Position numbers and translations under genes: made by a program. 18,657 bases of DNA from a virus. Positions 1,951 to 18,607 of the stretch are shown piece by piece; positions within the stretch are counted from its first letter, which is position 1; each line of letters opens with the position of its first letter. The notes under the pieces were generated by a model that saw only the letters and a program-made list of their open reading frames with translations, did not search any database and had not been told where the DNA came from. Location: the UHGV virus genome UHGV-0107297. One strand, 5' to 3'.

Positions 1951-2373
1951 ATGAAACACGTATTACTTCCTCTGGTTGCTGCCTCCGCGTTACTTATCAC
2001 TGCATGTCAATCTCGTCCTATTCCTGTCTCTGAGGCAAAGCCAGCACCGCAGACCAGAATATTCAAATACCAATCTCCGGCGGCATCGACGCTGGTGGTT
2101 ATGAGAGATAAAAGCATGGTGGGCGCCGGTTGCGACGCATCGATCTTCATCAATGGCGAAACCGTTGCAAAACTGGAAACAGGTGAAAAAGTCACTTTTC
2201 ATCTGGATGCCGGAGAATGGATTGTTGGCGCCTCACTCGAAGACGCTGGGCTGTGCGCACTGAATCCTGCTCGTCAGGAACGCGAGACGATTACCAAAGC
2301 TGGCGAGACGAAAGTCTTCCGGGTGTTCACCAGTAATGCTGGTGACATCGATATCTTACCAACGACACTGTGA
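1951..2373 (+). CDS. putative lipoprotein, 140 aa
   Basis: N-terminus MKHVLLPLVAASALLITAC reads as signal peptide with lipobox LITA-C; in-frame alternative ATG at 1915. Confidence 0.6.
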   Translation: MKHVLLPLVAASALLITACQSRPIPVSEAKPAPQTRIFKYQSPAASTLVVMRDKSMVGAGCDASIFINGETVAKLETGEKVTFHLDAGEWIVGASLEDAGLCALNPARQERETITKAGETKVFRVFTSNAGDIDILPTTL

Positions 2374-2377
2374 CGAT

Positions 2378-2905
2378 ATGACGAATATTACTGACATCAC
2401 CTACGGGATTCCTGCAGAAGTCTGGCCGCGCGATTACACCAACGTGGAGAAAGCGCTGATGTTCTGGCGCAAGTCTCTTATTCCTGTAAGGGTCACGATG
2501 GAAGATGGTCAGGTGTTCTGCATGTATGTTCAGGGTCTCATGTCGTCACGCAACAAGGTCGACCTTTGCCCTGCCCCGTTCGACAAAGATAATCGTATAA
2601 GGCTCCCACTTGAGCGAATCAGCACGATTGAATCAGGTGTGACAGAAGGCATTGCACACGACTTCACGGGTCGGACAACGATACACCCAGACTATGTGGA
2701 CAATCGGCCATCTCGCCGTGATTTCTTCAAAATTTGTCGCCAGGCCCATGAGATGCAGAAGTCTATAAGGGTCTACATGGCGGATGGCCGTGAAATTGAG
2801 GGGGTGTCTTCAGGCGTTGACGCTTGTCAGGTCACACTCAACATGGGGGACGGTAGGAAGACAGTCGCCATGTTCGATTGGGTCGAACGGATTTTACCGT
2901 TTTAA
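2378..2905 (+). CDS. hypothetical 175-aa protein with internal duplication; weak Rof/YaeO-like (Rho-binding) resemblance
   Basis: Likely start ATG 2378 (MTNITD) 4 nt after lipoprotein stop; two repeats each with (I/V)RVxMxDG(Q/R)...ERI pattern; Rof link is from memory and unverified. Confidence 0.5.
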   Translation: MTNITDITYGIPAEVWPRDYTNVEKALMFWRKSLIPVRVTMEDGQVFCMYVQGLMSSRNKVDLCPAPFDKDNRIRLPLERISTIESGVTEGIAHDFTGRTTIHPDYVDNRPSRRDFFKICRQAHEMQKSIRVYMADGREIEGVSSGVDACQVTLNMGDGRKTVAMFDWVERILPF

Positions 2906-2920
2906 ATCTATAAGGGTAAT

Positions 2921-2950
2921 AACCGGCTAAGTCCGGTTATTATTTTATTC
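2921..2950 (+). terminator. rho-independent terminator
   Basis: AACCGG-CTAAGT-CCGGTT hairpin at 2921-2938 followed by ATTATTTTATT. Confidence 0.6.
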
Positions 2951-3121
2951 GTCACTTCCCGTTATATTTATTTCCCACAAACTCGATTCCAATTTAAATA
3001 TATAAGGGTGATTGGCTGAATAGAGAATTTATTTAGGCAACACCTTCGAGAAAACGCGTTTTATTTCTAAGATTTTGATTTTTATTGGAGAAAAATTTTT
3101 TCGTTCCCGCATAAAAAACTC

Positions 3122-3150
3122 TTGATTTTAATTTCTGTATATCGATAATT
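3122..3150 (+). promoter_or_regulatory. sigma70-like promoter candidate
   Basis: TTGATT - 17 bp - ATAATT inside a very AT-rich intergenic region (2951-3227) upstream of CDS 3228. Confidence 0.4.
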
Positions 3151-3227
3151 AGTCACATCGAAAGCGAACACGCTAACGATAAACAAACAACAAATTAAGT
3201 TATCAATATTACATAAGGATTAACATC

Positions 3228-3878
3228 ATGTCTAACGTTACCATTTCTAAAAAATCCATTATCGACGCTGCTGTGGTTATCGCTAATGAGTTACAAGTTG
3301 CAGCCAACAACGCTACTCAGACTTATAACAATCATTATAAAAATGGTACACACACAAAAGCGGATAAAGCTAACATGCTTGCAGCGTCTACCAAACTAGC
3401 ATACTTCACCAACAACGTTTTAAACGCTGTTAATGATGAGAAATTAGCTGGTATCTTTTACTACGCGATTAAAGCAAGTAAACAAGCACCTGAAGCGTTT
3501 TTCCGTGAAGCTATGACCAATAGCTATTCACTCGAAAAACTGGTTTATCTGGTTAAATCTATTAAAGCTGGAAAGTGTGTTTATTCCGTCGCTGATATGT
3601 CCGGATCTCGTGTATTCGCTTTAATCGATATGATTAACGACGAGATCGACACGTTCACCAATGGCGCTGTTTTCGATTTAATGAATGAAGCGAAAAAAGC
3701 CAACGAAATAAAATTAGACGCAGGATACACTCAAGCCAACCAGCTTATCAATCTTTGCGAACGTCTGGGACTGGTCGAAAAAATCAAAGGAATGGGTGCA
3801 GCGAAAAACGGATCACAGCAATATCGCTTCGTTAAAAATGATTTTTATAACTATCTGGCTGATGCTTTCAAAGCGTAA
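3228..3878 (+). CDS. hypothetical 216-aa protein, AT-rich gene
   Basis: SD AAGGA before ATG; low-GC composition unlike flanking genes; no motif recognised. Confidence 0.7.
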   Translation: MSNVTISKKSIIDAAVVIANELQVAANNATQTYNNHYKNGTHTKADKANMLAASTKLAYFTNNVLNAVNDEKLAGIFYYAIKASKQAPEAFFREAMTNSYSLEKLVYLVKSIKAGKCVYSVADMSGSRVFALIDMINDEIDTFTNGAVFDLMNEAKKANEIKLDAGYTQANQLINLCERLGLVEKIKGMGAAKNGSQQYRFVKNDFYNYLADAFKA

Positions 3879-13683: not shown

Positions 13684-13712
13684 AATTAAAAAGACCACTA
13701 TATATAGTGGTC
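13684..13712 (-). terminator. rho-independent terminator of CDS 13752-14153
   Basis: Perfect 22-bp palindrome AGACCACTATATATAGTGGTCT followed on the minus strand by TTTTTAATTGG. Confidence 0.65.
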
Positions 13713-14862: not shown

Positions 14863-15507
14863 TTAAAACGTCTCTGAGGGCTTCTGACGCGCTCTGCTAA
14901 TGTCTATTACCCCAGCTTTTGGACGAGGGTCTACAAGATTCAACTCTTCAGCACTGTGATACTCCGTGTCGAACTCCCGATCGACATGTCGAATGTAAAT
15001 GGCTGTCAGAAGGCTGTTATCATTCAGAAAGTGTCCGTAAGATTTGCGAATTACTTCGCCAACCTTCTCAATCTTCTCTCCGCCCATGCAGAGATGGTTA
15101 AATCGGCTGTGTTTCCGCAGTATTTCATCCACCGGGCCTGAGTAGACCTTATCAACTCTCCCGAACCGGATGATATTTCCAGTATCAGCTTCAACCAGAC
15201 AAACGAGTTTGCCAGGTTCGACACGATCTCGCCAAGTGACACCAGAGCGCAGTGTGTTGAAGTAGGGAGCATCCAATCCGATGATCGGTTTACGAAATGC
15301 TAGTAGTGGCACGTAACGTATGCAGCTGTTTAGGTGGAAATGCGCACCGGCGTCGTGGAGTTTAAGCCGGGTTTCGTTAATCGGGCATTTCGAAGCAATG
15401 CCGCAAAGGTCGCAGAGCAACTTCTGTTTGTTCAGACTAGTGTTTGATTCAATGGTGTAGGAGCCATCTTCAAGACGGCGAACCCAGCGCGTGCGTTTAA
15501 GATCCAT
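14863..15507 (-). CDS. hypothetical Cys-rich 214-aa protein
   Basis: ATG at 15507; CDLCGIASKCP...HLNSC cluster suggests a zinc-binding module; family not recognised. Confidence 0.6.
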   Translation of the reverse strand: MDLKRTRWVRRLEDGSYTIESNTSLNKQKLLCDLCGIASKCPINETRLKLHDAGAHFHLNSCIRYVPLLAFRKPIIGLDAPYFNTLRSGVTWRDRVEPGKLVCLVEADTGNIIRFGRVDKVYSGPVDEILRKHSRFNHLCMGGEKIEKVGEVIRKSYGHFLNDNSLLTAIYIRHVDREFDTEYHSAEELNLVDPRPKAGVIDISRARQKPSETF

Positions 15508-15583
15508 AATTCTTGTTCAAATAATTTTGTCCGGGGCAACGATAACGGATAAGGCGCACCGGAGTTTGCAAATGCCTGTTTAC

Positions 15584-15664
15584 TTATTCACTTTATTCAC
15601 AGGCCCGATCCAATATTTAGATCCCCAGAGAGATCCTACAGAAGATCAAAAGAGATCCCCGATC
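15584..15664. promoter_or_regulatory. origin module copy A: tandem DnaA-box-like sites plus six GATC sites
   Basis: TTATTCACT/TTATTCACA at 15584-15601; GATC at 15607, 15620, 15632, 15644, 15654, 15661. Confidence 0.6.
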
Positions 15665-15702
15665 GTCTCCAGCGCTTGCGGTTACTGGCTTGAGAAGGGG
15701 TT

Positions 15703-15810
15703 ACTATCCACTATAGGGAGCAAAATAACCACTGTAGAGAGCATAATAACCGCTATGAAGAGCAAAACAACCTCTCTGGAGAGTAGTCGGTATCCACTGT
15801 AGTGAGTAGG
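15703..15810. repeat. iteron set A, 5 copies at 24-bp spacing
   Basis: ATCCACTATAGGGAGCA, AACCACTGTAGAGAGCA, AACCGCTATGAAGAGCA, AACCTCTCTGGAGAGTAG, ATCCACTGTAGTGAGTAG. Confidence 0.7.
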
Positions 15811-15967
15811 AGACAATGTTTTAACTGGATAACTCCGAGCCTGTTTTTCTGCGGCAGATGGCTGATATTCTTGGAAATATTGTAAATTTTGCGTTGCGGC
15901 GTGTTTATTTCGATCACACATTATCCCCAGAAGGGGAGTGATGCCTGATTTTGTAATTATCTGATTT

Positions 15968-16040
15968 TTATACACAGGCCCGATCCAGTAATTCAGATCC
16001 CTGTTAGAACCAAAGAGAACCACAAAGACCCAAAGAGATC
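15968..16040. promoter_or_regulatory. origin module copy B: DnaA-box-like site plus three GATC sites
   Basis: TTATACACA at 15968-15976 followed by the same GGCCCGATCC junction as copy A; GATC at 15982, 15996, 16037. Confidence 0.55.
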
Positions 16041-16087
16041 CCCGGCCCCTGCAAACCGTTGTGCCACATGGCTTTAGAGGTTATCGA

Positions 16088-16220
16088 TATCCACTATAGT
16101 GAGAAGAACAACCACTATAGAGAGTAAATCAACCACTATGGAGAGTAGAAAAACCGCTGTAGGCGGTAGGATAACCACTGTGATGGGTGCTACTATCCAC
16201 TGTAATCAGTAAAGGCACCC
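16088..16220. repeat. iteron set B, 6 copies at 24-bp spacing, immediately upstream of repA
   Basis: ATCCACTATAGTGAGAAG, AACCACTATAGAGAGTAA, AACCACTATGGAGAGTAG, AACCGCTGTAGGCGGTAG, AACCACTGTGATGGGTGC, ATCCACTGTAATCAGTAA. Confidence 0.75.
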
Positions 16221-16249
16221 AAGCCGTCGAATAAAAAGAGACATTTGGA

Positions 16250-17305
16250 ATGAGCGTAAACGACAATAAAAACATTGCGATAAGCGAAGCATTTTCCGAA
16301 ACAGACAAAAAGACCGGCGAAGTTGTTACGTTAGTTCCTAACACCAACAACACAGTTCAGCCTGTTGCTCTGATGCGTCTTGGTCTCTTCGTTCCGACGC
16401 TGAAATCGACATCCAGGGGTAGAAAGGGGCAAATGGTCTCTATGGACGCCTCCGCTGAACTCAAACAGCTGTCTCTGGCCAAAGCCGAAGGGTACGAGGA
16501 TATAAGGATTGCTGGTCTTCGTCTTGATATGGATAACGATTTCAAAACATGGGTGGGCATCATCCACGCGTTCGCCAAGCACAAGGTTGTTGGTGACACC
16601 GTCACGTTGCCGTTCGTCGAGTTCGTCAGACTTTGTGGCATACCAACAGCCAGATCGTCCGCGAAGTTACGTAAGCGCCTGGACAGCTCTCTAAGTCGTA
16701 TCGCCACAAACACCATCTCATTCCGCAGCAAAGGCTCTGAAGAGTATTACGTTACGCACCTTGTGCAGACGGCAAAGTACAGTACCAAGAATGACACGGT
16801 CGAACTGAAGGCCGATCCTAAGATTTTCGAACTTTACCAGTTCGACAAAAAGGTGCTTTTGCAACTTCGGGCCATCAACGAACTCTCCAGAAAGGAATCC
16901 GCGCAGGCGCTCTACACCTTCATTGAAAGTTTGCCACCAGACCCGGCGCCAATCTCATTGGCTCGCTTACGCGCCAGACTTAACTTAACCAGCCGCACCA
17001 TTACCCAGAATGCGACAGTCAGGAAGGCGATGGAGCAGCTGCGAGAGATCGGCTATCTCGATTACACTGAAGTGAAACGCGGCAGCTCGGTCTACTTCGT
17101 CATCCACTATAGACGGCCGAAGTTACGTTCGGCACTGCCGCCATCTATGGCTACGCCTGAAGAGCCAGAAGATATCTTGCCAGGTGATGATCCGGAGGAC
17201 ATTATCGATGTTGCCCCTGAAGAAAAAGACGGGGAAATGGTCATGTTGAGCAAGGAAGAACTGGCGATTCTCGAAGAGCTGCGCAAGGCAAAGGCTCGCA
17301 AATAG
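16250..17305 (+). CDS. repA: iteron-binding replication initiator, RepFIB/P1 RepA family, 351 aa
   Basis: Flanked on both sides by iterons; conserved blocks recalled from RepFIB initiators ([62 protein letters not shown]). Confidence 0.85.
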
Positions 17306-17912
17306 CCCAACCACTGTAGAGAGTAAAAAGGCTCACTACAGTAGATAGTGAGCCTTTTTGTTTATCGGAAATGCAATATCCACTGTAGTGAGTAAAAGAA
17401 ACCGAAGAATAACCACTGTAGGCAGTGCGCACAAATCGCGAAGTAAATGTTAGTGGTTGCAAACATAGATAAAACAAGGGCTGAGAGGTTAGCGGTCACT
17501 GGGTATCTCTGTTAAGTCTACTCTCTACAGCGGTTATCGTCGCTCTCCTCATTGTTGACTATCCACTGTGAAGAGCAGAATTGGCTGACTTGACCTCTAT
17601 CCACTGTAGTGAGTGGATATCCGTTTAAAACAGCGAAGATTTACTCTCCATAGTGGATATCCGCTGGAGGGGGCATTCCATCACTCTCTATAGTGGTTGT
17701 TTGTAGTCAGTGAACGCCTGTTTACTCACTACAGTGTATAGCGACCCCGATAATCACCAATTTACTCACTACAGTGGATAGTTGATATCGTGGCAGAGGG
17801 TTTGCTCACTACAGTGGTTGGGGTGCATACCTGAAGGGTGTTCTACTCGCTACAGTGGTTATGAGCCGGATTCACACGCGGTGAGCTGGCTACTCACCGC
17901 AGTGGATAGTGT
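17306..17912. repeat. downstream iteron field, about 14 copies in both orientations
   Basis: Core CCACTGTAGTGAGTA and its reverse complement TACTCACTACAGTGG recur at irregular spacing. Confidence 0.75.
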
Positions 17913-18214: not shown

Positions 18215-18607
18215 CTAATGACTGCCCTGATCGCTGTGGAACATCACCCCGCCGGGCTTACCACGGGTTTCCCATGCCATTTCCAGCGATTTCATGGTGA
18301 GCCTGCTGTCCGGCGAGAACGACATGGCCCAGCCCACTTGTTTTCTTGCGAACAGGTCGAGAACAACGGCGAGGTACGCCCAGCGCTTACCCGTCCAGAT
18401 ATAGGTCACATCACCGCACCACACCTGATTTGGCTCGGTCACGGCGAACTGCCGTTCAAGGTAGTTAGGGATAGCAACATGTTCATGACCACCACGTTTA
18501 TACCGGTGAGTCGGCTGCTGACAGCTGACCAGCCCCAGCTCCTTGGCAATTTGACGTCCTTTCAGGCCTGGTGACCCACCTAATAACTCTGAGACTGCCT
18601 TCAGCAA
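18215..18607 (-). CDS. IS3-family transposase OrfB, N-terminal part only
   Basis: [35 protein letters not shown]...HSDQGSH matches the DDE region of IS3-family OrfB; frame ends at TAG 18215 where homologs continue; orfA would lie beyond the window. Confidence 0.7.

Follow-up and report, generated by a model that had tools for sequence, protein, structure and literature searches.

Phage P1 and the RepFIB plasmids carry known relatives of the replicon analyzed here, and both have a single origin module upstream of the initiator gene. In P1 (NC_005856), oriR combines DnaA boxes with five Dam sites and a set of five incC iterons that bear the promoter PrepA, and is followed by repA and nine incA iterons. 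This origin reportedly depends on Dam methylation and binds SeqA. Classic RepFIB replicons (P307, F, pO157) consist of a DnaA site, upstream iterons BCDD'D'' with the origin, a rep gene that begins at CTG, and downstream iterons E-K that control copy number (PMC11983097). In pO157, an E. coli IncF plasmid and a pSLT-like plasmid, the region upstream of rep has a single DnaA box and a single iteron set, with five or six GATC sites in one cluster. Here, we analyzed a replicon of this type at positions 15584–17912 of an 18,657-nt stretch of viral DNA (UHGV virus genome UHGV-0107297; the whole stretch is referred to as the window). Upstream of its repA gene lie two homologous origin modules, A (15584–15812) and B (15968–16216), which lie 383 bp apart in the same register (Table 1).

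Two origin modules upstream of repA

The components of an origin core, namely DnaA boxes, GATC repeats, linker and iterons, occur twice in the window, completely in module A and with three of the six GATC sites in module B. An earlier note on this DNA, drawn up without database searches, had proposed a P1/RepFIB-type replicon with an apparent tandem duplicate of its origin. It listed two DnaA-box-like sites, six GATC sites in 58 bp and five iterons for copy A, and one DnaA box, three GATC sites and six iterons directly upstream of repA for copy B. All of these elements were found in place, and both modules open with the identical TTATNCACAGGCCCGATCC, a shared start that had likewise been pointed out. 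Only the iteron spacing, given there as 24 bp, had to be corrected, as it measures 21, 21, 21 and 23 bp in A and 21–22 bp in B. The six GATC sites of A compare with ~0.2 expected in 58 bp (68 sites in the 18,657 bp of the window). The similarity between the modules extends beyond the iterons: without them, the cores (15584–15704 and 15959–16087) reached a local alignment score of 41, compared with 9.1 ± 1.7 for shuffled sequences (z ≈ 19), which bears out the proposed tandem duplication. A larger duplicated unit including part of repA or the left flank was rejected, as the spacer between the modules has no similarity to the repA leader, the 5′ end of repA or the left flank (z = 0.4–0.6).

Iterons were counted in the window at cut-offs of ≤2 and 3 mismatches. 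At 3 mismatches, the motif was found 36 times, compared with 7.7 times in shuffled sequences, and at ≤2 mismatches a single match lay outside 15705–17908. The array of further iterons downstream of repA that the earlier note had announced is present, as in other P1 oriR/RepFIB-type replicons, with a count at ≤2 mismatches of 15 instead of about 14. By analogy with P1 incA and RepFIB iterons E-K, we infer that this array serves copy-number control. Among near-identical E. coli plasmids its size varies in steps of ~40 bp (15 iterons in the window, 14 in pGS04EC-1 and 19 in pE16EC1016-4; loci L097 and L098 compared), whereas the 711 bp upstream that contain both modules differ by 1–3 substitutions and no insertions or deletions.

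The assignment to the P1/RepFIB type is supported by the RepA protein, a predicted initiator with Rep3 domains (Rep3_N, E = 2.4e-11; Rep3_C borderline at 20.7 bits, just below the cut-off of 21.1) and a match to PHROG 775 (E = 1.6e-146). Its identity is 93% to RepA of Salmonella phage SSU5 and of the Yersinia pestis plasmid pMT, 77% to that of Cronobacter pCTU1, ~69% to those of Pantoea plasmids, 60–63% to classic RepFIB Rep and 46% to P1 RepA (tblastn E = 2e-71). Relatives are typed as IncFIB. A search of RepA and the neighboring proteins against NCBIfam gave no match. Compared with P1 RepA, the protein has an extra C-terminal tail of ~60 amino acids, with the match ending at residue 307 of 351. 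The repA start codon of the window is ATG.

With P1, the replicon shares the order of its parts: tandem DnaA boxes, Dam cluster, G+C-rich linker, five iterons with 21-bp spacing, repA and downstream iterons. Module A aligns element by element with the annotated P1 oriR, and the two cores are 64% identical. The P1 annotation has a tandem pair of DnaA boxes at the left end of oriR, in the position taken here by the DnaA-like boxes of module A. The GATC cluster of the module is homologous to the five annotated Dam sites and is likely the unwinding and SeqA-binding element. In contrast to P1, where one module also bears PrepA, the window replicon has two modules, its iterons (TATCCACTGTAGTGAG) are unrelated to those of P1 (GATGTGTGCTGGAGGG), and the downstream array is larger than the nine iterons of P1 and occurs in both orientations.

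The linker of module B resembles that of classic RepFIB replicons (P307, F, pO157), which have a single upstream module instead of two and iterons of the TGATAAGCTGTA type. Because the iterons differ, a different incompatibility specificity is expected. By its iterons, its number of modules and the Rep identity of only 60–63%, the window replicon falls outside the F/P307/pO157 incompatibility type.

Conservation of the modules across the RepA clade

To assess the distribution of the two modules, we mapped DnaA boxes, GATC sites and iterons in 80 loci from a collection with one genome per species. The clade set was defined by iterons of the CCACTRTAG family and comprised 56 replicons, 53 of which had exactly two clusters of iterons upstream (Yersinia, Cronobacter relatives, Rahnella, Erwinia, Pantoea and Xenorhabdus). 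For two of the remaining three, inspection by eye revealed distal iterons diverged beyond the detection threshold in L070 and a decaying distal module in L063. The proximal iteron cluster is present in all 56 replicons.

The rest of the origin core is preserved unequally in the two copies. In all 53 two-module replicons the distal module has 5–7 GATC sites and at least one DnaA-like box. The proximal module has 0–5 GATC sites, on average 3.2, and bears a DnaA-like box in 41 of these replicons. The GATC count is higher in the distal module in 48 replicons, equal in five and lower in none, so that the better preservation of the GATC cluster in copy A, described in the earlier note for this DNA, is a clade-wide pattern. 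In some replicons, for example those of Franconibacter (L021), Phytobacter (L025), Scandinavium (L039) and [Erwinia] mediterraneensis (L077), the proximal core has no GATC site at all, which leaves the distal core as the only complete one.

Replicons of the Cronobacter pCTU1 type and those of Pantoea, Erwinia and Rahnella share with the window the two upstream modules, the iteron family and a complete distal core. They differ in their neighboring genes (e.g., parAB upstream in pCTU1) and in the proximal core, which ranges from near-intact (Pantoea, 4–5 GATC sites) to devoid of GATC. For example, module A of pCTU1 is complete and a second set of iterons is present, with the proximal DnaA/GATC core nearly gone (one GATC site), and a Pantoea agglomerans plasmid has both modules, the proximal one with four GATC sites. 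The six GATC sites of module A are all kept in SSU5, pMT, a Salmonella plasmid and phage Cyrano, and five are kept in pCTU1. SSU5, pMT, the Salmonella plasmid and Cyrano all carry both modules, and in module B they likewise keep the three GATC sites and the GATC-less heptamers.

Evolution of the duplicate

A neighbor-joining tree of RepA placed the two-module replicons in one clade, nested among single-module lineages (P1, the P1-like phage RCS47, PhiR41_1/pJN2-26, FIB(K), classic FIB, a Pantoea large-plasmid type and Photorhabdus). The simplest reading of this tree is one tandem duplication of the whole module in the ancestor of this large enterobacterial clade, with both copies retained since. 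An attempt to date the duplication by a tree of the 125-bp cores was given up in favor of the RepA tree, as the cores are too short to resolve and their inter-copy similarity is patchy.

The earlier note had considered the layout non-standard, and P1, pO157 and the described F/P307 RepFIB replicons indeed have one module each. It had also suggested a comparison with reference replicons, which might have revealed an ancestral architecture instead of a duplication. Because P1 and classic RepFIB are single-module, the duplication is derived and not the basic plan of the family; because the close relatives and 53 of the 56 clade replicons share the layout, it is ancestral to the RepA subfamily and nothing special to the window. 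We accordingly rejected two modules as a general RepFIB/P1 plan, given the single GATC cluster or module in P1, RCS47, pO157, pSLT-like FIB and IncFIB(K), and further in PhiR41_1, pJN2-26, Photorhabdus and two other Pantoea replicon types. A duplication peculiar to the window or to E. coli was also rejected, as it is present in SSU5, pMT, Cyrano, pCTU1, Pantoea and the species-level relatives of the survey. Taken as a whole, this structural and evolutionary account, which rests on sequence comparison, seems to us very probable.

A cores are on average 0.68 identical to one another, B cores 0.54. To the single-module outgroups, A cores are 0.66 and B cores 0.57 identical, compared with only 0.60 between A and its own B. 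Since A cores are closer to each other and to single origins, A is the conservative copy, although B holds the ancestral position next to repA. Between the window and Cyrano, the cores are 74% (A) and 83% (B) identical and the iterons 82% (A) and 86% (B), with 62.5% for the spacer and 65% for third codon positions of repA as neutral proxies. Both copies are thus more conserved than the neutral proxies, and neither looks like a relic in the SSU5 group.

These values also bear on the possibility that the duplication was neutral, with one copy left as a relic without function that awaits loss. The partly eroded GATC sites of module B would fit such a relic. However, two modules have been kept in nearly all clade replicons although RepA has diverged to ~62–70% identity, both are more conserved than spacer and synonymous sites, and no insertions or deletions have entered them among E. 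coli relatives, whereas the downstream array varies. We therefore regard a relic as extremely improbable.

The left edges of the modules show a different pattern of similarity. In Cyrano (L005, ~1835–1870), the left edge of module A (TTATCCACTGGATAGATCCAA) is nearly identical to P1 oriR, and in the window (15584–15612 and 15959–15990) and SSU5 the left edge of A matches that of B (CACAGGCCCGATCCA). This pattern suggests occasional exchange, either by gene conversion between A and B or by recombination with an origin of the P1 type.

A possible division of labor between the modules

In R6K (alpha, beta and gamma) and RK2 (oriV iteron groups), one Rep protein serves several iteron elements, among which the labor of initiation and control is divided. 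For the present replicon these systems offer an analogy only, as their initiator families and origin designs are unrelated and they do not repeat a complete DnaA-GATC-iteron module in tandem.

The overall explanation to which we lean combines the ancestral duplication with module A as the main origin and module B mainly as the operator of repA. The division of labor as such, proposed from the sequence, appears to us about evenly poised between right and wrong. The distal module A, which carries the complete P1-like origin signature, would be the main site of initiation. RepA monomers on its five iterons, together with DnaA on its boxes, would open the methylated GATC heptamers, and the resulting hemimethylated GATC sites would be sequestered by SeqA. 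The principal origin is placed in A because A alone always keeps the feature set of P1 oriR and is the sole complete core where B lacks GATC. Retention of the proximal module B would be due mainly to its iterons, which would lie across the repA promoter and act as an autoregulatory operator. Such a placement would account for the retention of B iterons everywhere: a promoter-like TTTAGA-N16-TATAGT (16073–16100) extends into the first B iteron, and the P1 promoter PrepA is itself located within incC iterons. Module B would also supply RepA-titrating and handcuffing sites beside the ~15 downstream control iterons. Its DnaA/GATC part may be under weaker or different constraint and could provide a secondary origin where it is largely intact, including the lineage of the window. 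The net effect would be a separation of origin firing from repA autorepression, both of which depend on one iteron set in P1.

Several observations weigh against this division. Simple decay of B does not fit the SSU5 lineage, where conservation of the B core, GATC-less heptamers included, equals or exceeds that of the A core. The promoter call is a weak consensus match (9/12). In the Cedecea/Buttiauxella lineage both modules have at least five GATC sites, and in a Buttiauxella metagenome-assembled genome (L063, 1540–1900) one iteron and three GATC sites are all that is left of the distal module, next to an intact proximal module with four GATC sites and five iterons, from which it follows that the proximal module can suffice. 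Finally, the tree of the 125-bp cores is poorly resolved, and there are signs of gene conversion between the copies.

The mostly lost distal module of L063 and the 83% identity of the B core to Cyrano within the SSU5 group also favor the reverse assignment, in which B is the working origin, located beside repA in the ancestral place as in P1 and classic RepFIB. Module A would then be an accessory control element, with iterons for RepA titration and handcuffing and a sink for DnaA and SeqA, which tightens copy number or sets incompatibility. Yet B has no GATC site in several lineages and no DnaA-like box in 12 of 53 replicons, which is never the case for A; a titration bank needs only iterons, yet A keeps its DnaA boxes and 5–7 GATC sites throughout; and functional single origins resemble A more than B. 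We consider this assignment unlikely.

Less likely still, in our view, are two full and redundant origins of one initiator that differ in their Dam/SeqA dependence, with A methylation-dependent and sequestrable and B less so. The one-sided GATC asymmetry across the clade is not predicted by simple redundancy, and an opening of B is conjectural. On the other hand, both modules are under purifying selection in the SSU5 lineage, one or the other copy decays in different lineages, as redundancy predicts, and the module B pattern of two GATC sites, a gap and one GATC site recurs in the SSU5, Rahnella and Erwinia lineages.

In a quite improbable variant, A would be a methylation-dependent origin that fires once per cycle, and B a GATC-poor origin that fires on under- or hemimethylated DNA, for example during establishment after infection or transfer. 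If true, this would constitute a dual-mode origin design, unrecognized so far and common to Y. pestis pMT, SSU5 phage-plasmids and Cronobacter and Pantoea plasmids.

Novelty and implications

As such, the replicon is a known one with many sequenced examples, and it points to no new kind of system. The novel part may be that a whole RepA clade has a conserved tandem duplicate of its origin module, eroded one-sidedly. In the searchable full-text literature, a two-module origin is undescribed for these replicons; an earlier description is possible, with the 1998 pMT1 papers beyond this scope. All database annotations viewed for relatives leave the origin, the iterons and the two modules unmarked.

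This replicon type maintains elements of medical relevance, namely Y. pestis pMT (pMT1/pFra), pHCM2-type plasmids of Salmonella Typhi, resistance-carrying SSU5-like phage-plasmids and Cronobacter virulence plasmids. If firing and autoregulation are indeed split between A and B, the clade would be a natural experiment on the coupling of initiation, autorepression, handcuffing and Dam/SeqA sequestration. Practical bearings are incompatibility-based plasmid-curing cassettes, the design of mini-replicons and the annotation of origins in database records.

Host element and neighboring features

The 2.4-kb replicon region has 340 matches in PLSDB. It is 99.8% identical over 2411 bp to E. coli plasmid p1585m1_B and equally close to dozens of other non-mobilizable E. 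coli plasmids (~95–190 kb, mostly 105–125 kb), and its DNA is 89% identical to SSU5 and 82% to Cyrano. On its left lies a divergently read gene for a 214-amino-acid protein (PHROG 2105) and on its right a cra-like gene of 71 amino acids, both as in the SSU5 backbone. The near-identical plasmids and the SSU5-type neighbors identify the region, as judged from these matches, as the plasmid-maintenance (plasmid-prophage) replicon of an SSU5-like phage-plasmid. Its near-identical repA, its iteron flanks and the same neighboring genes in an SSU5-like backbone assign it to the SSU5/pMT replicon type. SSU5, Y. pestis pMT (pMT1/pFra) and E. coli SSU5-like phage-plasmids carry the same replicon (89–99.8% DNA identity over 2.4 kb), with only point changes and the number of downstream iterons differing. 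In PLSDB, p1585m1_B is typed as IncFIA,IncFIB,IncFIB, and Y. pestis pMT and pGS04EC-1 as IncFIB only.

Table 1 Features of the replicon region, with positions in the window.
Feature	Position	Strand	Description
Module A tandem DnaA-box-like 9-mers	15584–15601	+	15584 TTATTCACT (1 mismatch to TTWTNCACA); 15593 TTATTCACA (exact)
Module A GATC (Dam) cluster	15607–15664		Six sites: 15607, 15620, 15632, 15644, 15654, 15661; ~10–13 bp repeats
Module A G+C-richer linker	15665–15704		AT fraction 0.42, compared with 0.57 in GATC cluster; aligns with P1 linker (...GATCGTTGCAGGCCGCGCCACGTCTGGCTTAGAAG)
Module A direct iterons	15705–15812	+	Five; starts 15705, 15726, 15747, 15768 (weak, 3 mismatches), 15791; consensus TAWCCACTRTAGNGAG
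Inter-module spacer	15813–15958		Least conserved segment
Module B DnaA box TTATACACA	15968–15976	+	
Module B heptamer region	15982–16040		GATC at 15982, 15996, 16037; three GATC-less repeats AGAACC, AGAACC, AGACCC
Module B G+C-richer linker	16041–16087		Like classic RepFIB linker (CTGCAAACC.TTGT)
Module B direct iterons	16088–16215	+	Six; starts 16088, 16109, 16130, 16151, 16172, 16194; adjoin repA; presumed repA operator
repA	16250–17305	+	351-amino-acid iteron-binding initiator (predicted), Rep3 family, WH1/WH2 domains
repA intrinsic terminator	17321–17363	+	Hairpin followed by U run; −21 kcal/mol, z = −5.8
Downstream iteron array	17308–17908		Matches with ≤2 mismatches: six forward, nine reverse

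Additional sites resembling replicon elements were observed in and around the region. The spacer contains a DnaA-like box TTATCCCCA (1 mismatch; 15921–15929), which has a counterpart in Cyrano (ATATCCACA) and whose position, ~45 bp before the DnaA box of module B, is conserved. Many Pantoea/Erwinia relatives have a reverse-strand DnaA-like box just past the distal iterons, reminiscent of the DnaA boxes at both ends of P1 oriR. An iteron-like site CATCCACTATAGACGG with 3 mismatches lies inside the repA coding sequence (17101–17116, + strand) and may be due to chance or represent an internal RepA-binding site. One downstream iteron (17332) falls within the hairpin of the repA terminator. A perfect 21-bp palindrome, AGACCACTATATATAGTGGTC (13692–13712), located 2 kb left of the replicon, contains the CCACTAT core of the iterons.

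Two open reading frames across the modules, 15491–15802 (+) and 15682–16023 (−), were taken as spurious, as they cross iterons and are unannotated in the relatives viewed. A search for structured RNA in Rfam gave only a sub-threshold RsaJ hit over the terminator and iterons (24.7 bits, compared with a gathering score of 100), which was taken as chance.

Just beyond the replicon, an open reading frame at 18215–18607 (−) with an integrase core (rve) domain represents a remnant of an insertion sequence (IS), and near 18217 the window lacks ~1.2 kb present in p1585m1_B. An IS3-family insertion left of the replicon is another difference between the two. The SSU5-like phages PhiR41_1 (L010) and pJN2-26 (L011) encode a different RepA (48–50% identity) with its own iterons and a single module (~2050–3470) in the same slot between the 214-amino-acid gene and the cra-like gene. 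Whole replicon modules have therefore been swapped within the SSU5-like phage-plasmid group. In the pJN2-26 record, attL and attR are annotated on either side of the rep gene.

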